The translations under genes and the position numbers were made by a program. DNA of 62,899 bases, counting the filler, from Stramenopiles sp. TOSAG23-6 (Eukaryota): the NCBI GenBank assembly GCA_900128565.1. It is 10 parts of 10 records of this genome, joined end to end, with 100 filler letters (N's around TTAATTAATTAA, not from the genome) between each part and the next. Parts side by side here need not be neighbours in the genome. Positions count along the whole stretch, not along the records: positions 34,005 to 42,379 come from LT636457.1; 9 more parts are not named here. One strand, given 5' to 3'. This document shows, piece after piece, positions 4,004 through 61,806 of this stretch (positions are counted from its first letter, which is position 1; each line of letters starts with the position of its first letter). The notes beneath the pieces were generated by a model. It saw only the letters and a program-made list of their open reading frames with translations, was not told the DNA's origin and searched no databases.

Positions 4004-4540
4004 ATGGAGACCAATCTCAAAGTTGATACTTTGCTGCCACAGAAGACACAGGCTTCTGTTGCAATAGATACTGCGCCACCTAGAATGACAGAAACAGTAG
4101 TTGTAGGGAAAACAAGAACTCTGGAACCACACCTTTCATGGAAATTTATCTTGCTTCTCATCCTTTCGTTTTCGTTAGGTTGTATTCTTGCCGGGGGAGC
4201 AACATATTTTGTCTTGGATAAAGATTATGAAAACAAACTTTATGAATTGAAGTTAGAGAATGCAATAAATCGCGGTGGCTCTTCAGGTTGTGGCTGTGGC
4301 TCTCCTGACTGCGGGGATAACAACTGCGATGAGGAGGATTCTTCTGGCGTTGGCCCTTCAGGTTGTGACTGTGGCTCTCCTGATTGCGGGAGGGATAAGA
4401 AGGATGAAAGTGTAGCGCCTGATGTAGTGCCTGATGGTAGTAAAAGTGTAGAGCCTGATGGTGGTAAAAGTGTAGCGCCTGATAGTAATAAAAGTGGAGA
4501 GGATGCTGGTAATAAAAGTGTAGCGCCTGGTCGTCCGTGA
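4004..4540 (+). CDS. Single-pass membrane protein (tandem family copy 3)
   Basis: Same TM block; GCxCGSPDCG twice and KSVAPD repeats. Confidence 0.7.
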   Translation: METNLKVDTLLPQKTQASVAIDTAPPRMTETVVVGKTRTLEPHLSWKFILLLILSFSLGCILAGGATYFVLDKDYENKLYELKLENAINRGGSSGCGCGSPDCGDNNCDEEDSSGVGPSGCDCGSPDCGRDKKDESVAPDVVPDGSKSVEPDGGKSVAPDSNKSGEDAGNKSVAPGRP

Positions 4541-8420: not shown

Positions 8421-8520
8421 NNNNNNNNNNNNNNNNNNNNNNNNNNNNNNNNNNNNNNNNNNNNTTAATTAATTAANNNNNNNNNNNNNNNNNNNNNNNN
8501 NNNNNNNNNNNNNNNNNNNN
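8421..8520. other. Artificial contig linker; also at 16934-17033, 25421-25520, 33905-34004, 42380-42479, 50853-50952, 59320-59419, 60514-60613, 61707-61806
   Basis: Identical 100-nt N-padded TTAATTAATTAA six-frame stop; contig lengths decrease monotonically (>=8420, 8413, 8387, 8384, 8375, 8373, 8367, 1094, 1093, 1093). Confidence 0.97.
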
Positions 8521-16933: not shown

Positions 16934-17033
16934 NNNNNNNNNNNNNNNNNNNNNNNNNNNNNNNNNNNNNNNNNNNNTTAATTAATTAANNNNNNNNNNN
17001 NNNNNNNNNNNNNNNNNNNNNNNNNNNNNNNNN

Positions 17034-17116: not shown

Positions 17117-17631
17117 ACGTCGAAGCATCGGAAAGAATTTACGTCTATCACTATTTCCAATACGCCTGGCAGGACTAGCATTTTTGAAACTGTCTTGCAT
17201 AGTATTTGTATTATTTTCAGAGATAATACTTAAACGTTTTTGTATACTTTTTGTCGGGGTACTAAATAATTCAGCATCATGTTTGATTTCATTCTGGTTA
17301 TGTTCATCTTGATACAAATCTTCGTCCCAACAACTTCTGCAGCCCCTAGTATTATGGATAATGAAAAAATATTTCAAAAAAAAATCATAAATTTTTGTTA
17401 GGTACAAAATTTCGTATGAAAAAAAAAATAAATTAGAAATTCATATGAAAACGTACACTACATCTACAAATACATTTCTTTAGCTCCTTCATCCAAGAAA
17501 GAGTATTTTCATCTGTGTCTGCGGCAAAGAATAATCCATGTTCGCTATGAGGGATATCCATATAAAAACATTTCGTGCTACGACATAAATTACTATTTAC
17601 TTTACCATTCGTTTCAATATTCTCCAGAGAT
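17117..17631 (-). CDS. PH-domain-like gene fragment; exons 17631-17457 and 17353-17117
   Basis: [33 protein letters not shown] resembles a PH-domain C-terminus. Confidence 0.6.
17354..17456 (-). other. Introner-like intron GT..AT (103 nt)
   Basis: agt|gtacgttttc...ttcattatccat|aat act agg, phase 0. Confidence 0.7.
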
Positions 17632-17741
17632 CTGTATTTTGGAAAAATATTTCAAAAAAAATCTAAAAAAAATTGTTAGGTATAAAATTTCGTACGAAAA
17701 AAAAATCGATTTTTTTGTTAAAAAAAAAAAATAAAACATCC
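17632..17741 (-). other. Introner-like element at a chimeric MUT/PH junction (GG..AG)
   Basis: cca t|ggatgtttt...aaaatacag|; the flanking exons belong to different proteins. Confidence 0.65.
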
Positions 17742-18816
17742 ATGGATCTTGCTCAGTCAAGGAATACCCTGATGTTTGACAATGTGTTCTTAATAGCCAA
17801 CTTTTTTCATTTTTTGCACCAAATCGATCACGTGTTATTTCAGCCCATAATTCTCTAGCAGCACGCATTTTAGCAACTTCCATATAAAAATTCATACCAA
17901 TTCCCCAAAAGAATGAGAGTCTTGGTGCAACGTCATCTACCTGGAGCCCAGCAGCTTCAGCACATTTAAGGTATTCAATTCCATCTGCCAATGTGAATCC
18001 AAGTTCCAATTTATTATCAGCACCTGCTTCTTGCATATGGTAACCGGAAATTGAAATGGAGTTATATTTTGGCATATGTGTTGCTGTATAACCCATTATA
18101 TCCTGAATAATTCGAAGGGAAGGTTTTGGATGATAAATATACGTATTTCGTACCATAAATTCTTTAAGAATATCATTTTGAATTGTACCTGCCAATAAAC
18201 TACGATCAACGCCTTGTTCTTCACCAGCTACTATATACATAGCAAGTACTGGAAGAACCGCACCGTTCATGGTCATAGACACAGACATCTTCTCGAGAGG
18301 AATTCCTTCAAAGAGAATTTTCATATCTTCCACGGTATCAATAGCCACACCTGCCATACCAACATCTCCAACAACGCGCGGGTGGTCACTATCATATCCA
18401 CGATGTGTAGCTAAATCAAATGCTACACTTAGACCCTGCTGTCCGGCTGCTACATTTTTTCTGTAGAAAGCATTAGAAGCTTCTGCAGTAGAAAACCCCG
18501 CATATTGACGAATAGTCCATGGCCGTGCAGTATACATTGTAGCATAAGGACCACGGGTATACGGATAAGAGCCAGGAGGTGCAGGATCTTCTAAATGTTT
18601 AGTATCAGCTGCGGTATATATCGGTTTTATTGTGATATTTTCAGGTGTGGTCCATAAAAGTGATTTTGGATCTTTTCCTCGGAGCTCCTTTTTTGCCTTT
18701 GCTTCCCATTCTTCGGGAAATTTCACAGTAGAGCTACTATGTCTGAGATGCCTAATTGGTGATGTAATGTATCCATGAATGAGTGAAGGCAAATTGCCTC
18801 TTCTGACATTCAACAT
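17742..18816 (-). CDS. MUT: Methylmalonyl-CoA mutase, N-terminal part only
   Basis: [64 protein letters not shown]. Confidence 0.95.
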
Positions 18817-19066
18817 TGTCACCCGTATACAAACAACACAATATCTATCTCTCTCCTCCAGGGGTCAATATTTTTCGGAATTTGTGTTTCGTGGTGGTGT
18901 CATTTTTGTCAAAATGCGCTGCAGTCAAGTCAGTCCGAAACAGATTGATTAGCTTACTACAAGTGCACTCTATCTTCTATTCTAATATAGCTTTTCTGTT
19001 GTAATTGGAGATTGTAGGGTTGTATATAGAACTAATTTCTATGGCTGAATAAATTCATCCTGATAA

Positions 19067-25420: not shown

Positions 25421-25520
25421 NNNNNNNNNNNNNNNNNNNNNNNNNNNNNNNNNNNNNNNNNNNNTTAATTAATTAANNNNNNNNNNNNNNNNNNNNNNNN
25501 NNNNNNNNNNNNNNNNNNNN

Positions 25521-33904: not shown

Positions 33905-34019
33905 NNNNNNNNNNNNNNNNNNNNNNNNNNNNNNNNNNNNNNNNNNNNTTAATTAATTAANNNNNNNNNNNNNNNNNNNNNNNNNNNNNNNNNNNNNNNN
34001 NNNNAAAAAAAAAACATAC

Positions 34020-35773
34020 AAGGCAGTGTCCAGCTGTACATGTACGGCATTTACTGCTGCAGTATAACCATGTAGGTAGCGTCTACCCTTAAAACGGATA
34101 ATATCATTCATATTGGGAAAATATGTCTAAATTGAATTCAGATTAGTAATAAAATTATGTATAAAAAAAAATCCTAATTCAAACTTAGAAACTTACCCCA
34201 TGTTCATTTAAAACGTTCGCCATGTTTGTAAAAACACCAAAGTACTTGAAAAATGACTTTTTCGAAGTACGGTGTTGGAGAGCCTGTCTCTTCACATCCT
34301 TCCGATCATTTTCCAAGGCACGACGAATATCACTATCTGGATTTGATAGTGCTTGTAACGCTATTTTGCTGTTGTTACAAAACGTACTTCTGAAGTCCTC
34401 CAAACTAATGTATTGTGAAAATTAATTAATTAAAAAAACGAAATTTTCGTTAGGTACGAATTTTACTATAAAAAAATTATTAAAAAAAAAACTTGATTTT
34501 TTTTTTAAATTAAAAAAAAAAGTTGAAAAATAAAAAAAAACTTACTGATAAACAAATACGACTTGATCAAAATCTAAGAGTAGGTCACTGCCGTCTGGAG
34601 ATGGTACATAGAGTATGACTCCTTTAGAGCAGTCCATGATATCATCCATGATGTTCGTATCATACACACTGATTACATGTAGCTTTAAAAAATAGAAAAA
34701 AATATAAAAATTAGAATTAGGTATAAAAAATAAAAAAAAAAGTTATTTGAAAGTTGTGATAAAACTTACTTCATTAGGTGTTACACCCGTATCAGCTAGT
34801 ATTCTATCACCAGACAATTCGGGGCAACTACTGAAAGCTATCGTCTTTTTCCCGCGTGACGTTTCCTGGTCTCCGTCCCTCTCCACTAGCACTCTTTTAT
34901 ACTTGGCGCTTTTTATCAAAAAATTTTTTTTTTCCTTGGACATCCTATCGAGATTTTTTTTTTGGTCAAAAGCGGGGAGTTCGTTATACTCTATCGTCTG
35001 TTCAGGTATATTTTTAACCCTAACCCTAACCCTGAAATGTGAGTTTTTTAAAATTATTTCTGTATTTAGTTAGGAAAAGAGTCACTATAACCAAAAGAAA
35101 GAAAAATCAAAAAAAAAATCAAAAAAAAAAAAAAGTTAAACATTTTTTTTTGGTTAGGTACAAATTTTACTATAAAAAAATAAAAAAAAAATGAAACGTA
35201 CTTTTTTTCTAACGTAGTTTTTGCAGTACTATTTTCGAATATAGAGTTGGTGTTGGACACCAATTTCTCTAATTCTACTTTGGATATTTCTCCGTTTAGT
35301 ACTTTTTTGACGTGTTGATCTTCTCCACCTTTTTTGGTTTTTTTGGCGCGAGCCCGTTGTCGCGTTCTTTTTCTGTTTACTTCCTTCCTATTCTCTTTTT
35401 TTTCTTTTTTTCTTTTCCTTTTTCTTTTTCTTTTAATTGGCCACTTTTTTTTTTCAATTGAGCTGCGCCAATTTTCCGCAACCGAGACAGCCTCTGTGGC
35501 TGCTGTTTTGGCTTTTCCTAGAGCTATAGAATAGTCAGGATGACTTGAGTGTAAAGTCGAGCATGTGAGGCACATGCTTGACTCTACCCTCAAGTCATCT
35601 AGACAATCTATTATCCAGGATTCATTTTCGCCCACAGCTTGGACTCTAACCGCGTCGGTTTTTAACACTTTTGTGCAATTCTGCAACTGAAAAAAATCGT
35701 TGCAGAATACACCATATTTTGCGGATCCAGCTGCATTCCAACAGCATGGACATGGAAGCGAGGAGACATTCAT
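34020..35773 (-). CDS. Multi-exon hypothetical protein, 3'-partial; introns about 35201-35032 (AG), 34771-~34680, 34545-34408 (AT), 34196-~34127 (AG)
   Basis: Frames join across AT-rich introns; no recognisable domain. Confidence 0.55.
34408..34545 (-). other. GT..AT intron with GTAAGT donor (138 nt)
   Basis: tat ca|gtaagt...ttcgtacctaac...cacaatacat|t agt ttg, phase 2. Confidence 0.7.
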
Positions 35774-35929
35774 TTTATAATTATTAATAAGTGGTAGAGT
35801 TGTTGGAGAGAGAAAGAGAGAGAGAGAGAGAGGAGCATACCCATCAAACTTCGCGTTTGCCAATTTTGAAATTAACGGTCCAATTTAATNAAATAACTGC
35901 CATCGAATTTATCGAATAATTTTTGTTAG

Positions 35930-36199
35930 AGCTGCTCCTCCTCCTCACAAACAACAAAATCACGCACACACCTAGTCGAGTAATGGACCACCTCGGTGGC
36001 ATTCCATGAGCTCGCCGCAGAATTTCTGTGGGACTCTTCGGAGTCCGTGCTGTGCGTGATTCGCTGTGTGGTCACACACACACCTAGTCGAGTAATGGAC
36101 CACCTCGGTGGCATTCCATGAGCTCGCCACAGAATTTCTGTGGGACTCTTCGGAGTCCGTGCTGTGTGTGACTCACAGTGCGTTTTTTGAGGAGCAGCT
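35930..36199 (+). repeat. Two 112-bp-period structured units (35960-36059, 36072-36171) inside an 11-bp inverted repeat; candidate ncRNA
   Basis: GGACTC-TTCG-GAGTCC hairpin, AATTTCTG, closing stem with a compensatory change; outer AGCTGCTCCTC/GAGGAGCAGCT. Confidence 0.8.
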
Positions 36200-36293
36200 T
36201 CTTCCAAGGGTGCTATTTCCCTAGAACATCGAACGTAAACATGAAAACACAATTGTCAAATGTTCCTATTTTAATTGCACATCCGATAATTTA

Positions 36294-37187
36294 TTGTGTT
36301 TATACAATGTGAAACGAAAACAAGGTGGAAAACATGTAGAGCTTCAAGGACATCGTGCTGGCGTTCGAGCTATTGCTCTTAGTCGAGACAACAGTATGGT
36401 TATGATGCCTTCGAAACAAACGACAAAAATTTGGCGCATTCGCTATGGTGGAACAGGAGAAGACTTGAATCTTCAATGTATTTGTACATTCGATTCAGGT
36501 TATGGCATTTGTCGTTCCTTTGTACAGGGTGATCAACATGCGGTTGTAGGTACAAAGGAGGGAGAATTGAAGTTGTTTTCTTTGGGATCTGGGGACTGTA
36601 TTTTCTCAACTGATGCTCATGAAGGATCAATTTGGTCGTTAGCGATGAGACCTGATAAAACTGGGTTTGCTACTGGAAGTGCTGATAAGACTGTTAAATT
36701 TTGGGAATTTGACGTTGATGATGATGAAAATTTAACAATTGTTCATACTCGAACATTAAAAATGACAGATGAAGTCATGTGCTTAAAATATTCGCATGCA
36801 AAAGAGGCGGAAAAATTATTGATAGCAATTGCTCTTTTAGATTGTACTGTCAAAGTTTTCTATGAAGATACTCTAAAATTCTCTCTTTCTCTGTATGGTC
36901 ATAAACTTCCCGTTATGTCTCTTGATATCTCATCTGATGATACAGTTATCACCACTGCATCTGCAGACAAAAATGTAAACCTTTGGGTAGTAAATTTTGA
37001 TGAAATTACTTCAACAGATGCAAAATGCGTCGGAATTGACAAAGATGAGAAGAAATGGACTACAAACCAAATTTGGACACTTTCTGAATCTTTAATCGAA
37101 TTAATTAATGCCCTATTTGATTTTGATGAAGCTAGTCGTGTTATAAAATTTGTTATTGTCAGTAATAATCGAGTTTCATCTACTTAG
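36294..37187 (+). pseudogene. Internal fragment of UTP12/DIP2/WDR3 WD40 protein
   Basis: LKFSLSLYGHKLPVMSLDISSD...SADKNV matches DIP2; no N-terminal half and similarity ends abruptly. Confidence 0.7.
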
Positions 37188-37606
37188 CTCGTGATTTTAC
37201 TACAGTTCCAGAAGTTATTTTAATTTTAGATGGCATCGCTAAAGTATCCAAACATGCTTTATTAATTGGATAAATTCGACTATTGTCGCGTGATGTTTTG
37301 ATTTTTTTTCTTTTTTTGAGGATTTTATCATAGAGTATTTAATATTGTACTTTTGTATTTATATACCTTGAAATTGTTTTGTATATACTCATTCTTGCAA
37401 CTATTGATTTTATTATTAATAGATTAGTAGTATATTTTGGTAAATAACTTTTTTTCATCATGATTGTATTATATTTCAAAAAATACAAAACACAATAATT
37501 ATACATATATTTAAAAATTATTCAATACAATATAAGTTTATTGTGGGAGGTTGTCCAAAACATCACTCGATAGTAGATGTATAATTTTTCAAATGAAATC
37601 CCAGTA

Positions 37607-39022
37607 TTAATATTGTATCAACTTCCCAACGGGAAACTTCCCAACTTTCCATGTCGAAAAATACATTCCACTAACAAAACCACCACCAAAAGAATGTCCT
37701 CCATAATGATTTCCACCATTAGAATAAACTGCATTAGAACAACTTACAGCATCAAAACTTGAAATATTTGATTTTCCACTGACAAATAATGAATCAACAA
37801 AACGTCGTTTTTTAGCATCAAAACTTGAAATATTTGATTTTCGGCTGACAAATAATGAATCAGCAGGTGTAGTATACTGATGTTTTCGTTTTTTACCACT
37901 TTGTGTTTTCACAGTAGATTTATTTTTTGAATGTATTTTCTGCTTTTTCCACGTCTTTGCAACTTTCTTGTATACCTCTACAACATCTTTGAAATTAAGT
38001 AGTTTTTCTTTAGAGAATTTGTAAAGAGAAGAAATCCTTTTGCACATATTATCTTTATCAAAATCCTCCAAATTGGTATTGTTTGACAAACTCTGACTAC
38101 ACAAATTCACTTTTACATTCACTTTTACAACATCACTGCTGTCGTTCATTGATTTCTTACTGGAGTTGTAACATTCTTCAACATACAATATAAATTCATT
38201 CTCATCAATACCAAGTTTATCCGCACGGCGAAATTGATCTTTAACACGATTACCAATTGAGTTTTGTACTTGGCTAGACTTTCGATAAAATGGTTGCTTT
38301 GCAGCATCATCAAAAACACTTCGAAGTTTCTTCAAAGCAGCACATTGAGACATTTTTTCAACACCGCTGAAATATTTCACACTGTTTAGGTCTGTGAACG
38401 CATCAATAATACTTTTATGTCTTGGTGCATCATATTTCGGATTATTAGAAGGATCGAAAGGCAAACGCGATCTGTCAGATTTCATAAATGTGTCTGTCAG
38501 CTTTGTGTAAGTGAAAGTCTCGTTTAACTCTTTAGAATTGTGTTCGAATTTAGCAACTATCGATAACAAGCCATATCGACGGTACATTGACAGTGTTAAA
38601 CTACGAGGAAAGAATTCGGTTAATTCATCCGGCGTTATCTCATCAGCCATACAAAACGAATCATCTTCTACCGTTCGAAGCCTCTCCAGTGGTGGTAACA
38701 ACTGACGCTCTTGCGAATCCTTGCGCGCATTAGTGAACAAACCAAGTTTACAACTTCTTATAATACGTCCGCGAATGAATAGTTCCTGTTCATCTACATA
38801 GCCTGGAGATCCTCTCGCTATTGAAGGGTCTAATGATAACTGAATGAAATCAGTTTTCCTCACACTTTTCTTCAAGTTAGTCAATAACCATTCTGTTTGA
38901 GCACTTCTTTCTTCCCACATTTTGAACGATGCAAAAAACATGTCTCCACGCTCTGCCGGTGTCGGTTTTCTTTCATATTTACGCTTGAACCATTTGATAC
39001 ACTTATCGTAATGTTTACCCAT
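37607..39022 (-). CDS. Intronless hypothetical protein
   Basis: ~470-aa ORF with duplicated DSLFVSxKSNISSFDA. Confidence 0.6.
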   Translation of the reverse strand: MGKHYDKCIKWFKRKYERKPTPAERGDMFFASFKMWEERSAQTEWLLTNLKKSVRKTDFIQLSLDPSIARGSPGYVDEQELFIRGRIIRSCKLGLFTNARKDSQERQLLPPLERLRTVEDDSFCMADEITPDELTEFFPRSLTLSMYRRYGLLSIVAKFEHNSKELNETFTYTKLTDTFMKSDRSRLPFDPSNNPKYDAPRHKSIIDAFTDLNSVKYFSGVEKMSQCAALKKLRSVFDDAAKQPFYRKSSQVQNSIGNRVKDQFRRADKLGIDENEFILYVEECYNSSKKSMNDSSDVVKVNVKVNLCSQSLSNNTNLEDFDKDNMCKRISSLYKFSKEKLLNFKDVVEVYKKVAKTWKKQKIHSKNKSTVKTQSGKKRKHQYTTPADSLFVSRKSNISSFDAKKRRFVDSLFVSGKSNISSFDAVSCSNAVYSNGGNHYGGHSFGGGFVSGMYFSTWKVGKFPVGKLIQY

Positions 39023-39410
39023 TTTTAAGAAACTAAATTTACAGGGAATCCCCCGTAAATGTTTCCCCTTTTTCTTAATTAATGCGTGTTGTATAGGGAA
39101 TAGGAGACAAGACAAGACAAGACAAGACTAGTATACGATACAGAGAAACTTGAGACACAGTTGAGAAAAAACACGAAATTATTAAATTTAAATTGTATCG
39201 GGCGGTTAATTATTCATTATCATGAAATTAAACGGTCGATTTGAGAACACGAACTCTATGAGTCTACGCTATCAAATCAAATATTGGTTTTTGTCAGGCT
39301 GATTCAGTCATATTATGATTGATTGTTTTGTTTGTTTTGTTTGTTTTCTTAATAAAATACTATTAAAGTAAAAAGTCTTCTATTATATCTTAAATTGTTT
39401 TAAAATTAAA

Positions 39411-42379
39411 ATGCCTTCATTTATTCCAACAACGACGCTACCACCTGTAGAAGGTGAGCAAAAGACGTCGGAAGAATCGTTGTGTATTGCTTCGAGGAAT
39501 GGTCCTGAAGTTGTACAACTTATCGCTGCTGGTGCTGACATCAGCGTGTTCTCAGTGGGAGAAAAAAACGACGCATTACGTATTGCTTCGAGGAATGGTG
39601 ATGTTGAAGTAGTTGAACGACTTATCGTGGCAGGTGCTAACATCAGTGTCTTATCAGATGACGGAAGATACAAAGCATTCTGTATTGCTTTGAGTAAGTG
39701 TCATGTTGAAGTAGTTAAACGACTTCTCGAGGCTGGTGTTGATTTCGATCGGTTTGATGGACTCGGATATACAGCCGGATATACACCATTGTATTTTGCT
39801 TCATTGTATGGTCATGTTGAAGTAGTTGAACGACTTATCGCTGCTGGTGTTGATGTCAATCTGGCTGATACAGCCGGAGATACCCCATTGGTTATTGCTT
39901 TAAGGTATCGTAATGAGAAAGTAGTTCAACTACTTATCGCTGCTGGTGCTGACATCAGCATGTTGTCCACTGATGAAAAAAACGACGCATTCCATTTTGC
40001 TTCGAAGAATGGTCGTGTTGGAGTAGTTGAACGACTTATCGCTGCTGGTGTTGATGTCAATCTGGCTAATAAAGCCGGATATACCCCATTGGTTATTGCT
40101 TTAAGGTATCGTAATGAGAAAGTAGTTCAACTACTTATCGCTGCTGGTGCTGACATCAGCATGTTGNCNACNGANCAAAAAAACGACGCATTCCATTTTG
40201 CTTCGAAGAATGGTCTTGAAGAAGTAGCTCAAAGACTTCTCGATACTTCTCGTCGAGGCACAAAACGACGTGCTTCAGTATCTATCGATGTTGATGTTGA
40301 TGTCGCTTCAGCATCTAACAATGTTGATGTTGATGTAAGTTTCATATGTCAACTTTTTTCAACTTTTTTTCAACTTTTTTTAATAATTTTTTTTCAACTT
40401 TTTTTTCATAATTTTTTTTGTAGTTGATTTTGCACCTGACAAAAAAACATTTTGATATTTTTCACAAAACATAAACGTCAAAAACATACTAGTTCCATGA
40501 CGAAAGATAATCTTGAAGTATGTTTTACTTTTTTTCAAATTCGAATTTTATTTTGTAGAGTATACGTCTTTGTTTTATTCATTTTATTCTCATAAAAATT
40601 AAGTCTTTTTAATTTTTTTTTCATACTTTTTTTTCATACGAAATTTTGTACCTAACCTTAATTTAAAAAAAAAACTAACAAATTTTGAATTTGAAATAAT
40701 GTTTCACAATCAATGATTTAATCAATGATTTGTTTCCAAAGAATGATGTTTCTGATGAACAGCGTACGTTTCTTTTATTTTTTATTCAATTGAAACATCT
40801 AAACTTTGTTTCATTATTTTTACTAATATGTGGAATTTTTAATTTATTTCACAAAAAGTAGGTAAAATCTTTATGGAAGGTCGAAAAAGATTTCATGAAT
40901 TTCTTGGATTGAACAACGATTCTCAATTTTGGCTATTGCATCATATGACTCCATGGAAGAATATGATCAATGCTAACAATGAGCATGGAGTGTATGTTTC
41001 TTTTTTTAACTTTTGTGTCTTGAACTTGATTACTTGTAACTAATTTTTCAAATGTATACTATTTTATCATTTTTGTACAATACAGTAATGGAAATGGAAT
41101 CCTAAATGATCTAATGATATGTATGAGTGATCGCCATGAAAGTGGCACTCTCAAGACATGGGCAGCGCCACTGCACAGTGGGCATCATATCTACAAACAC
41201 ATTCAAAAACACCATAAGCAAAAAATGGTTGATTCGCATGGTTTTGTCGCGATAATACCAATTGCGACTGGTTCTTATGATGGGGCCAGAGCTGTAGTAT
41301 TTAATAATTGGCTCAAAAAGGTACTTTGCTCTATATTTTTATTTTCCCTGTATTTTTTTTATTGCATTGTTTTTGTTTTTGATTTTGTACTTATATTTAC
41401 AATTTGGATATCATTTTAAACAATACAGGTTGGTGCACACCAATTTCGTTATGATTTACGAATTGATGGTAATCGATTCTTCATCGTGCATCAATCTGAA
41501 ATCGAAAAGTAAGTAATCAACAATTTTTCTCTAATTTCTCCAAAAAAAAATTTCGATTTTTTTTCCAATCCTAACCCAAATATTTTTTCTTCTATTAATA
41601 TTATTTATATTTGTAAATGTTTGAAAGTGAATATATTACTTTTTATGGAAATTATTATTTATTCATCACATTATACTAAAATCAATCGATTTTTTTATAA
41701 TTTTCACCACAGATTGAAAGAAAAAGCTGTCCTTCATTTGAAGAAGACTGGTGAATCTAATGATTTCATAAAGCGATATATGAATGAAGATTTTTACACC
41801 CAGTGTAGAATCCAAGGATGTTCAAAACGAAGACGGTATGGTACTGATATTCCACATTGTACGGAACATGGAGGTGGTCGTCGTTGTTTAGAATGTGGCA
41901 AAGCCGCTCAATGGCCCACAGGTACTTTTAATTTTTTTTTTATTTTTTTTCATCATGAATTTAATTCCAAAATGTATTCAACTCAGTAACACAAATATTT
42001 GAAATGTATCACAATTTATAGATTATTGTATTGGATGTGGCGGTGGTCGTCGTTGTAAAACTCCAAACTGTACAAAATCCGCTGTAGGAAGTACAGGTAC
42101 TTTTAATTTTTTTTTTATTTTTTTTCATCATGAATTTAATTCCAAAATGTATTCAACTCAGTAACACAAATATTTGAAATGTATCACAATTTATAGATTA
42201 TTGTATTGGATGTGGCGGTGGTCGTCGTTGTAAAACTCCAAACTGTACAAAATCCGCTGTAGGAAGTACAGGTACTTTTAATTTTTTTTTTATTTTTTTT
42301 CATCATGAATTTAATTCCAAAATGTATTCAACTCAGTAACACAAATATTTGAAATGTATCACAATTTATAGATTATTGT
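39411..42379 (+). CDS. Multi-exon ankyrin-repeat protein with C-terminal WRKY19-like zinc-finger repeats, 3'-partial
   Basis: Ankyrin exon 39411-40334, then small exons (KRQKH..., DLIND..., RKIFME..., VGAHQF...) to CTEHGGGRRC and repeated YCIGCGGGRRCKTPNCTKSA. Confidence 0.7.
40335..40472 (+). other. Degenerate GT..AT intron (138 nt)
   Basis: gat|gtaagt...cacctgac...ttcacaaaacat|aaa cgt caa. Confidence 0.6.
40518..40714 (+). other. Double-length GT..AT intron (197 nt)
   Basis: gaa|gtatgt...core motif...tcacaatcaat|gat tta atc. Confidence 0.55.
41922..42379 (+). repeat. 175-bp tandem unit: 100-nt GT-AG intron plus 75-nt zinc-finger exon
   Basis: Units start at 41922, 42097 and 42272 and look identical; array runs off the contig. 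Confidence 0.9.
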
Positions 42380-42548
42380 NNNNNNNNNNNNNNNNNNNNN
42401 NNNNNNNNNNNNNNNNNNNNNNNTTAATTAATTAANNNNNNNNNNNNNNNNNNNNNNNNNNNNNNNNNNNNNNNNNNNNCATATACAATTGAATACGATT
42501 TATACCTAACAAAAAAAAAAAAATTTAAAATTCATGATGAAACCATAC

Positions 42549-50758: not shown

Positions 50759-50961
50759 GTTAATGTGAAACATTATTTTTTTTTATTGGATAATTCATTA
50801 GGTACACATTTTTGTACAAAAAAAAAAAAAAAAAAAAATTTGGGAAAAAAAANNNNNNNNNNNNNNNNNNNNNNNNNNNNNNNNNNNNNNNNNNNNTTAA
50901 TTAATTAANNNNNNNNNNNNNNNNNNNNNNNNNNNNNNNNNNNNNNNNNNNNAAAACATAT

Positions 50962-59319: not shown

Positions 59320-59419
59320 NNNNNNNNNNNNNNNNNNNNNNNNNNNNNNNNNNNNNNNNNNNNTTAATTAATTAANNNNNNNNNNNNNNNNNNNNNNNNN
59401 NNNNNNNNNNNNNNNNNNN

Positions 59420-60224: not shown

Positions 60225-60975
60225 TCTTGTATATTTAACAGGTTGTTTGTTTTGTGCAAAGTGGGTGGTGAGTTTGGACTGACTGATGTCAAAAAACGAA
60301 AAAACACGAAATTTGCTATCGAGAGCCAGCGCGGCCAAACAACTTTAAAACTTAGTAAGGTTCAAGGATTTTATACTCAACCTCCGACTTGTCCGCTATC
60401 TTTTATTCAAAAGTTTAAAAGATTCAAGGATTTTACTTAGAATTTAGTGGCTCGACTTCGACTTGTCCACTATCTTTTGAACAAAAAGGCATAAAGATTT
60501 ACAATTTCCTAACNNNNNNNNNNNNNNNNNNNNNNNNNNNNNNNNNNNNNNNNNNNNTTAATTAATTAANNNNNNNNNNNNNNNNNNNNNNNNNNNNNNN
60601 NNNNNNNNNNNNNTTATTGAATAAAATACAAATTCAATGTATTTTTTTGGTAGTTTTTTTGTGCTTAATTTATGTAATTACCTGATTACCTGCAATAGTA
60701 CACATTTGTAGTTTTTTTCAATCCATGATATGATTATGATGTATAAATTACCAATTTGGGGTAATGCTACAGTCTTTGGCCAAAATAGGAATATATTCCC
60801 CTTGATCGATTTATTTACCGGGTAACACATTTTTTTGACTCGATTCGATTTAACTACAATTGAAATGATTGAAATTGCGATGGTCAAAGTCGCGAAAAAA
60901 ATACATTAAATATTAAAAAGGTACACTCCACCTTGGGGGGGCATCTCAATAGATTTCTTGGTATTACACTTACTC

Positions 60976-61706: not shown

Positions 61707-61806
61707 NNNNNNNNNNNNNNNNNNNNNNNNNNNNNNNNNNNNNNNNNNNNTTAATTAATTAANNNNNNNNNNNNNNNNNNNNNNNNNNNNNNNNNNNNNN
61801 NNNNNN

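Follow-up and report, generated by a model that had tools for sequence, protein, structure and literature searches.

The locus considered here, at positions 35930-36199 of a stretch of genomic DNA from Stramenopiles sp. TOSAG23-6 (assembly GCA_900128565.1), consists of two near-identical and strongly self-complementary units in tandem, and the question it raises is whether these encode a small structured RNA or are a palindromic DNA repeat with no function at the RNA level. To our knowledge, almost no small structured RNAs have been described from uncultured marine protists. If this one is real, it would represent an orphan family, unusually rigid in architecture and almost fully base-paired; if the locus is a foldback repeat, it would mark a rearrangement-prone spot in an already chimeric assembly. 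Under neither reading does the element explain the odd introns of this genome.

The window, by which we mean the whole 62,899-nt stretch that was analysed, is a chain of contigs joined by linkers of the form N44-TTAATTAATTAA-N44, and the element's own contig occupies positions 34005-42379. The reading that we prefer, with a probability of about 0.4, is that the element is a tandem-duplicated gene, read from the + strand and possibly transcribed by RNA polymerase III, whose product is a small structured RNA outside all described families.

Organisation of the element

An initial sequence-only reading of this locus listed a set of features, all of which are present at the positions it gave (Table 1). 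Tandem Repeats Finder reports a repeat at 35960-36171 with a period of 112, 1.9 copies, 97% matches and a score of 403, and a second repeat search returned two 109-nt copies that are 94% alike and lie 112 apart. The units are thus 100 nt long, as first described, but they recur with a period of 112 and not of about 100. The element contains three inverted repeats (11, 11 and 10 nt), each 100% complementary: the closing arms of unit 1 (AATCACGCACA/TGTGCGTGATT), those of unit 2 (GTCACACACA/TGTGTGTGAC) and an outer pair of 11 nt, AGCTGCTCCTC and GAGGAGCAGCT, also recognised from the outset, whose arms are 248 nt apart and wrap both units, T6 run included. A transcript that stopped at T6 would lack the right arm of the outer repeat, which comes after the run, and could not form the outer helix.

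Table 1. Parts of the tandem element, with coordinates along the window
Feature	Position	Strand	Basis or remark
Outer inverted repeat, left arm (AGCTGCTCCTC)	35930..35940	+	Outermost helix of the 291-nt fold
Linker, pyrimidine/A-rich, unpaired, from outer helix to unit 1	35941..35959	+	291-nt fold
Unit 1, four-way junction	35960..36059	+	Fold -51.2 kcal/mol; covariance model 123.5 bits (- strand 13.7)
Unit 1 closing helix: 9 bp, bulged C at 36050, 3 bp	35960-35971/36047-36059	+	Predicted fold
Unit 1 arm 1: 5+5+4 bp, A/GA internal loop (1x2), CAU bulge, CUCG loop	35977-36014	+	
Unit 1 arm 2: 6 bp, AUU loop, contains Sm-like AAUUUCUG	36016-36030	+	
Unit 1 arm 3: 6 bp, C(UUCG)G	36031-36046	+	
Spacer, 12 nt; 36062-36071 is the 5' strand of the extra helix around unit 2	36060..36071	+	
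Unit 2, same four-way junction as unit 1	36072..36171	+	Fold -50.0; covariance model 123.1 bits
Extra helix around unit 2, 3' strand (CTCACAGTG, then CG)	36172..36182	+	Fold
Terminator-like hairpin, sharing the 3' strand of the extra helix	36158-36182	+	Terminator scan
T6 run directly 3' of the helix; possible RNA polymerase III stop and oligo-U tail	36183..36188	+	
Outer inverted repeat, right arm (GAGGAGCAGCT)	36189..36199	+	Beyond the T6 run

Each unit is predicted to form a four-way junction in which a 12-bp terminal helix bears three hairpins, two of them with YNMG tetraloops. No linker would separate arm 3 from the 3' strand of the terminal helix, and end-to-end stacking of the two, like that of the acceptor and T arms of tRNA, would be possible. 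Within each unit 76 of the 100 bases are paired, the free bases being about five at the junction and those of the three small loops. Around unit 2, the spacer and the 9 nt that follow the unit on its 3' side form an extra helix with two G.U pairs on the + strand, extending the closing helix of this unit to about 21 bp.

Fold stability and base composition

The structure of the element is beyond chance. The + strand RNA fold of unit 1 has a z-score of -6.09, with none of 200 shuffled sequences equally stable, and the whole 291-nt element folds to -142.1 kcal/mol (z -9.93). A GC-corrected structure scan with a 110-nt sliding frame (2996 windows) gave four of the ten highest + strand ranks to the element, which is outranked there only by one exon window and by a long hairpin at 35501-35650; on the - strand it does not figure in the top 15. 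The 16-nt UUCG hairpin GGACTCTTCGGAGTCC occurs twice where 0.01 occurrences are expected. The units are also rich in GC (0.54-0.58, against a mean of 0.359 for the stretch, sd 0.075): the GC content of unit 1, 0.57, is reached in just 8 of 6010 100-nt windows, and these belong either to the element itself or to a coding stretch near 4271-4291.

Strand asymmetry

With RNA parameters the + strand is the more stable throughout. Unit 1 folds to -51.2 kcal/mol on the + strand and to -43.1 on the - strand (z -3.66), a gap of 8.1 kcal/mol; the gap is 4.6 kcal/mol for unit 2 (-50.0 against -45.4) and 6.0 kcal/mol for unit 2 together with its extra helix (36061-36187, hereafter extended unit 2; -64.9 against -58.9). 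With DNA parameters, by contrast, the strands tie (-25.9 and -25.4; z -4.69 and -4.16). Standard pairs number 38 of 38 in both units when the + strand is read but 36 and 37 of 38 on the - strand, and every G.U pair falls on the + strand. Read from the + strand, the two tetraloops with their closing pairs are C(CUCG)G and C(UUCG)G, both of the extra-stable YNMG class; from the - strand the loops are CGAG and CGAA. A covariance model built from both units, R1, scores about 123 bits on the + strand and about 14-16 bits on the other. These strand features suggest selection on a + strand RNA: they are what such selection would leave, and a DNA palindrome would not produce them.

That last point bears on the strongest competitor of the RNA gene, a DNA-level foldback or palindromic repeat, either MITE-like or a recombination-prone nested palindrome, which would have no RNA function and whose stems would owe their likeness to gene conversion or to repair templated by the hairpin. 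We regard this reading as doubtful, but it deserves to be taken seriously. It accounts for inverted repeats nested at three levels and for folds that, under DNA parameters, are equal on the two strands and significant on both; it leaves unexplained why G.T pairs and the two YNMG loops occur on one strand only, and on the same one, and why the GC content is 56% in a genome of 36% GC.

Differences between the two units

A compensatory change between the copies had been put forward from the outset as a mark of a structured RNA. The units differ at exactly three of their 100 nt, namely unit positions 5 (G/A), 58 (G/A) and 96 (C/T), with unit 2 carrying A at 36076, A at 36129 and T at 36167. Positions 5 and 96 are partners and go from G-C to A-U, whilst the change at position 58 turns G.U into A-U, and pairing on the + strand is indeed preserved in each case. 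The compensatory change is nevertheless weaker evidence than it appears, since all three differences are transitions from CpG to CpA or TpG, at three of the eight CpGs of the unit (the stretch as a whole is mildly depleted in CpG, with an observed/expected ratio of 0.89).

We enumerated all 560 possible trios of CpG decays under a model in which only such decay takes place. Every pair is kept in 205 of them (37%), and 40 (7%) include a two-sided pair; under a random substitution model the corresponding values are 13% and 0.6%. The two-sided change at positions 5 and 96 is also expected if the element is a foldback repeat, since gene conversion between the arms of a palindromic DNA would bring it about as well. 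The closing helices are CA/TG-microsatellite-like and could have had a selection-free origin. Known copies number three in all, two of them 97% alike, too few for a proper covariation test. The pairing-preserving differences between the units are therefore suggestive of RNA selection but not proof of it.

Copies and relatives elsewhere

A sequencing-run index assigned a share of 0.78 of the stretch to one run, X1, probably its source, and small parts of it to 11 marine runs, two of which are recorded as RNA; the shares of X4-X7, X9, X10 and X12 amount to 0.05-0.15. We compared the contigs of four runs with the stretch: X2 and X3 (both DNA) and X8 and X11 (both RNA). A 151-nt contig from X8, a marine metatranscriptome, matches 35969-36050 with eight other letters and one gap (about 89% alike). 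The match spans the three-hairpin core together with the inner 3 bp of the closing helix, and on both sides of it the sequences are unlike. Two of the eight substitutions are placed, the other six being without positions, and the pairing count covers these two only: 36018 C>T and 36019 A>G leave the + strand with U.G and G.U in place of C-G and A-U, whereas the - strand would have A.C and C.A. The one-base deletion, at 35992, falls within the CUCG loop. A search for further copies, proposed in the sequence-only reading, has thus brought to light one diverged copy of the core, and its two placed substitutions keep pairing on the + strand.

Judged by hand from the unaligned ends of the contig, the flanks of the X8 copy can still pair at five of the first six positions despite their different sequence. 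With a chance of about 3-10%, depending on the number of registers allowed, this hints weakly at covariation in the terminal helix. Because DNA may be present in RNA libraries, the origin of this contig does not prove transcription. Neither X8 nor X11 contigs cover 35892-35968 or 36051-36246, which, as these are contigs, is not evidence of silence. A contig from X3, a marine metagenome from another study, reproduces 36105-36256 with two other letters, showing that unit 2 and its 3' flank are not an artefact of the present assembly.

The wider searches added no relatives. With filters off, R1 found only the two units in the 62.9 kb. Seven k-mers from the element were used in pattern scans, four over viral contigs, four over prokaryote genomes and one over JGI metagenomes, and R1 rejects all 24 loci returned. 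Of these, 23 came from a conserved 19-mer (7 in prokaryote genomes, 16 in metagenomes and none in viral contigs) and are chance matches in GC-rich bacterial DNA, the best of which, a bare hairpin, scores 16.1 bits; five further k-mers gave 0 loci each and a sixth gave a single Nocardioides locus (at most 10.8 bits). A search with the - strand open frame at 35929-36255, treated as a pseudo-protein, yielded no candidate in either of the two length classes covered ('shorter' and 'near') of a collection of 5.8 billion predicted proteins. In the literature we found no published account of the UUCG hairpin word or of a protist four-way-junction noncoding RNA of this kind.

These comparisons cut both ways for the foldback repeat. 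At least one other copy, that in X8, stands in a different context; the element is apparently absent at this place from a 96%-alike relative represented in X2, a presence/absence difference; the genome has another abundant short element with inverted termini, inside its introns; and a second large hairpin lies 350 nt upstream. With foldback and MITE elements the locus shares terminal and nested inverted repeats, small size, a lack of coding capacity and occurrence at more than one locus. Against this, what the X8 copy retains is the core without the terminal inverted repeat, the reverse of what is expected of a transposon whose ends serve as transposase sites, and the 62.9 kb hold no further copy. 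No direct repeat that could be a target-site duplication surrounds 35930/36199, 35960/36059 or 36072/36171, where the flanks read ..GTTAG/TCTTC.. (outer), ..AAAA/TTCG.. (unit 1) and ..GTGG/CTCA.. (unit 2). Together with termini that are not conserved at the second locus, the high GC content, the strand-specific G.U pairs and the YNMG loops, this sets the locus apart from such elements. Of the foldback mini-element that had been suggested from the sequence, then, the inverted repeats stand, whilst target-site duplications are missing and the ends differ in X8.

Genomic context

To the left of the element lies an intron-containing gene on the - strand that belongs to no Pfam family. To the right, a + strand frame aligns to human WDR3 at residues 409-624 only, that is, to the middle of WDR3/UTP12 (Pfam WDR3 second propeller, 4.2e-72); neither the N-terminal half of this gene upstream nor its C-terminal part downstream was found. 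Contigs of the 96%-alike relative in X2 (DNA) and X8 (RNA) follow the stretch from 36247 rightwards and have different sequence leftwards, the 623 nt of the X2 contig upstream of 36247 showing no match to 35892-36246. The X3 contig crosses 36247 by 10 nt only, too short to settle the break, and a self-BLAST of 35400-37700 against the stretch revealed no repeat, besides the two units, that accounts for it. The break is one of three things: a lineage-specific insertion or rearrangement, a displaced WDR3 fragment or a chimeric assembly. Chimerism is seen elsewhere in the stretch, where a methylmalonyl-CoA-mutase exon is followed by a repeated intron and then by an unrelated exon, and several contigs end within repeated introns. 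An ORF at 37610-39022 (-), considered as a transposase, was rejected on finding no Pfam family and no homologue.

This neighbourhood raises the alternative that the element is a structured module in a longer polymerase II transcript, located in an intron or UTR of the WDR3/UTP12-like gene and perhaps released as an intron-derived stable RNA or acting in cis on splicing or translation. The WDR3-like frame is on the same strand and begins about 100 nt downstream of the element, and a frame that starts in the middle of the gene needs something spliced to it. Moreover, the T6 run lies inside the outer helix (35930/36199), a position that fits a precursor that polymerase III did not make. We nevertheless think this alternative unlikely: what lies in the 2 kb to the left is a gene on the other strand and not the N-terminal half of WDR3, the contig of the relative parts from the stretch at 36247, and in an assembly that joins unrelated exons the adjacency itself is uncertain.

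Comparison with known RNAs

U1, U4, U11, spliced-leader (SL) RNA and the ribozymes had been named in the sequence-only reading as the families to look for with Infernal and Rfam, and none of them was matched, even at E<=10. At gathering thresholds the whole 62.9-kb stretch returned 0 Rfam matches. At E<=10 the region 35850-36260 (411 nt) returned two matches, both below threshold and neither to an snRNA: TLS-PK3 (13.6 bits, against a threshold of 80) and sR2 (11.2 against 42), the latter outside the units. Rejected by the lack of an Rfam match are thus recognisable U1, U2, U4, U5, U6, U11, U12, U4atac, SL RNA, Y, vault, 5S and SRP RNAs.

A variant Sm-class RNA, either a U1-like snRNA or an SL RNA serving the odd introns of this genome, was nonetheless one of the options raised from the sequence, where GCAGAAUUUCUGUGG followed by a UUCG-capped hairpin resembles the Sm site and stem-loop 4 of U1. 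The likeness to the 3' part of U1 consists of an AAUUU.UGUGG-like run, a C(UUCG)G hairpin after it and a junction of four helices, but it extends to about a dozen letters and the topology differs. The Sm site of U1 is single-stranded and lies, with the UUCG hairpin, outside the junction; here both are inside it and the run is predicted to be base-paired. A C interrupts the U run of AAUUUCUG (the Sm consensus is RAU3-6GR), and the probability of being unpaired is 0.00 for five of the eight bases, leaving the AUU loop as the only open part. All three known substitutions in the hairpin that contains it (36129 in unit 2, and 36018 and 36019 in the X8 copy) keep pairing. The UUCG-capped hairpin, GGACUC-UUCG-GAGUCC in both units, is enclosed by the closing helix and not terminal.

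Nor do the units have a single-stranded end complementary to a 5' splice site. The motif ACUUACCU is absent, confirming the missing U1 5' end already remarked on from the sequence, and the nearest run, ACACACCU, lies within the closing helix; loops of the U1-70K or U1A type are likewise lacking. Spliced-leader and snRNA genes often occur in tandem, as these units do, and GUAAUG at unit positions 21-26, 20 nt into the unit, is a potential splice donor. It falls inside arm 1, however, and the first 9 nt of the unit, the would-be leader exon, are not common to the X8 copy, so that an SL RNA was rejected along with the snRNAs. The spacer of 11-12 nt, finally, leaves no space for an snRNA promoter upstream of unit 2. 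With its Sm-like run paired, no free 5' end and no snRNA or SL model at E<=10, the Sm-class reading has become very improbable.

Short tandem self-complementary units are typical of satellite and retrozyme ribozymes, and the natural hairpin ribozyme is a four-way junction. The element resembles satellite and retrozyme ribozymes in its short, strongly self-complementary tandem units, and the hairpin ribozyme of plant virus satellites in the compactness of its four-way junction and in having two neighbouring arms that carry internal loops. It is nonetheless just as improbable that it is a tandem self-cleaving ribozyme or retrozyme-like repeat with units cut from a multimeric transcript. None of the hammerhead, hairpin, twister, twister-sister, pistol, hatchet and HDV-like models was matched at E<=10, and neither a CUGANGA nor a GAAA core occurs on the + strand. 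The junction is almost without unpaired conserved bases and the units number only two. The loops (one of 1x2 and bulges of 3 nt and 1 nt) fall short of those of the hairpin ribozyme in size and are without its conserved loop A and loop B bases. The remaining probability falls to an artefact or some other explanation.

Two further classes were rejected. With no linker between arm 3 and the terminal helix on its 3' side, and with the possibility that the two stack, the four-way junction resembles tRNA and tRNA-like (mascRNA-type) structures. Its dimensions are not those of a tRNA, however: the 'acceptor' has 12 bp, the first arm 14 bp and the middle loop 3 nt. T-loop and anticodon loop are lacking, and ARAGORN found 0 tRNA or tmRNA genes in the stretch. 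Box C/D and H/ACA snoRNAs have no model at threshold here, and the units show neither an RUGAUGA/CUGA pair nor a large internal loop.

A candidate polymerase III transcript

The RNA gene that we prefer corresponds to another of the options first raised from the sequence, a novel four-way-junction RNA. Its fold, its strand-specific RNA features and the copy of its core in X8 are as that option would have them. These and the GC excess are observed, whereas transcription, the polymerase, the ends and the function of the RNA are inferred. The mature product would most likely be extended unit 2, some 127 nt in length (36061-36187) with its short oligo-U tail, or alternatively a two-unit precursor with the same T6 end.

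Y and vault RNAs, which are made by polymerase III, have paired ends followed directly by a T run, and their genes often lie in small tandem clusters. Extended unit 2 with the T6 run at 36183-36188 has this arrangement of terminal helix and T-run terminator, and the resemblance extends to a length of about 100-130 nt and a long terminal helix with a bulged C. It differs from these RNAs in that three perfect hairpins take the place of the large loop in the interior, the 3' strand carries the bulged C and there is no Rfam match. Runs of T6 or longer occur at 2.5-4.9 per kb (2.5 on the + strand; 41 in the 8.4-kb contig), giving a chance of about 3-6% that one lies within a dozen bases of a given point.

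When the sequence was read by eye for promoter elements of polymerase III, TAGTCGAGTAATGG was seen to bear a loose likeness to the A box of tRNA genes, and no B box was found; the AT-rich runs upstream of the units are uninformative in a genome of 36% GC. A scan for bacterial-type promoters and terminators came out near the expectation from shuffled sequence, with two terminator-like sites against 1.0. The outer inverted repeat is left unexplained by a polymerase III gene and is a better fit to a polymerase II precursor.

As so few bases are unpaired (about five at the junction and three small loops), a role as a protein-binding scaffold or processing substrate appears more probable for such an RNA than one as an antisense guide, and the shape recognised may be that of the terminal helix stacked on the UUCG arm. 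More tentatively than the gene itself, we suggest that the units could be founding members of a new family of small RNAs, transcribed from the + strand as compact four-way junctions with a covarying terminal helix and a conserved core, that uncultured marine protists would assemble into a stable ribonucleoprotein. Should the RNA be real, R1 is ready for mining protist genomes and metatranscriptomes.

Repeated introns

The introns of the window have one repeated sequence in common, some 130-150 nt long, that begins GTAYGTTTT and runs through TACGAAATTTYGTACCTAAC and an A/T-rich stretch to a 3' end in CACAATACAT. Its GTACCTAAC motif is found 24 times in the window, split 13 to 11 between the + and - strands (examples in the table), and the ends of the repeat form a short inverted repeat (ATGTAY...ATACAT). 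Most copies finish in ACAT rather than AG, and thus the 3' splice site of these introns can be placed only approximately. They look like transposon-derived introns of the 'introner' type. For the tandem pair of 100-nt four-way-junction units, the sequence-only reading had offered, as one of three possibilities, a variant Sm-class RNA relevant to unusual splicing; what it had in view was probably these repeated introns, and no sequence link between them and the four-way-junction element was found.

Repeats, linkers and hairpins located by position
Feature	Position	Strand
Intron repeat copies (examples among 24 places)	361, 941, 1220, 19792, 44421, 45105	
Intron repeat copies (examples among 24 places)	17405, 34457, 35161, 50405	-
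Artificial linkers 1-5	8421-8520, 16934-17033, 25421-25520, 33905-34004, 42380-42479	
Artificial linkers 6-9	50853-50952, 59320-59419, 60514-60613, 61707-61806	
Second hairpin, 10-bp	35678-35709	

Contig joins

The window is interrupted by nine artificial linkers, each reading N44-TTAATTAATTAA-N44, and so consists of separate contigs strung together instead of one continuous piece of DNA. Several contigs end within the repeated intron sequence. A methylmalonyl-CoA-mutase reading frame (17614-18864, - strand) breaks off at ...LTEQDP and, beyond one repeated intron (region 17440-17700, - strand), is followed by an unrelated exon instead of the remainder of the enzyme; this break is likely to be an assembly jump through the intron repeat.

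Surroundings of the four-way-junction element

Across the whole window (1-62899), 62.9 kb of gene-dense sequence, neither an Rfam match nor a tRNA gene was found. To the right of the element, the WDR3/UTP12-like frame (36247-37000 region) spans only the middle of the protein, corresponding to human residues 409-624. A 96%-alike relative, seen in a marine DNA sequencing run (X2) and an RNA library run (X8), carries different sequence to the left of 36247, and at 36331-36337 it has 38 letters against 5 in the window, an in-frame difference of 33 nt. Further along, a 471-aa reading frame (37610-39022, - strand) belongs to no Pfam family, and a search of 5.8 billion proteins (sizes 259-825 residues) gave no homologue; it is an orphan gene.

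An imperfect long hairpin (35501-35650; ~95 nt, ~35 bp) lies 350 nt upstream of the element and ranks first by structure among 110-nt places on both strands of the window, with folding values of -53.7 on the + strand and -49.1 on the - strand (residual z -6.9 and -6.0, respectively). Both this and the second hairpin overlap a doubtful reading frame on the - strand. Three telomere-type TAACCC repeats are internal to the same contig (35015-35033), in the - strand gene region, and a perfect 175-nt tandem repeat (41918-42379; 2.6 copies, 100% matches) reaches the contig end and shows weak similarity (69%) to 37449-37544.
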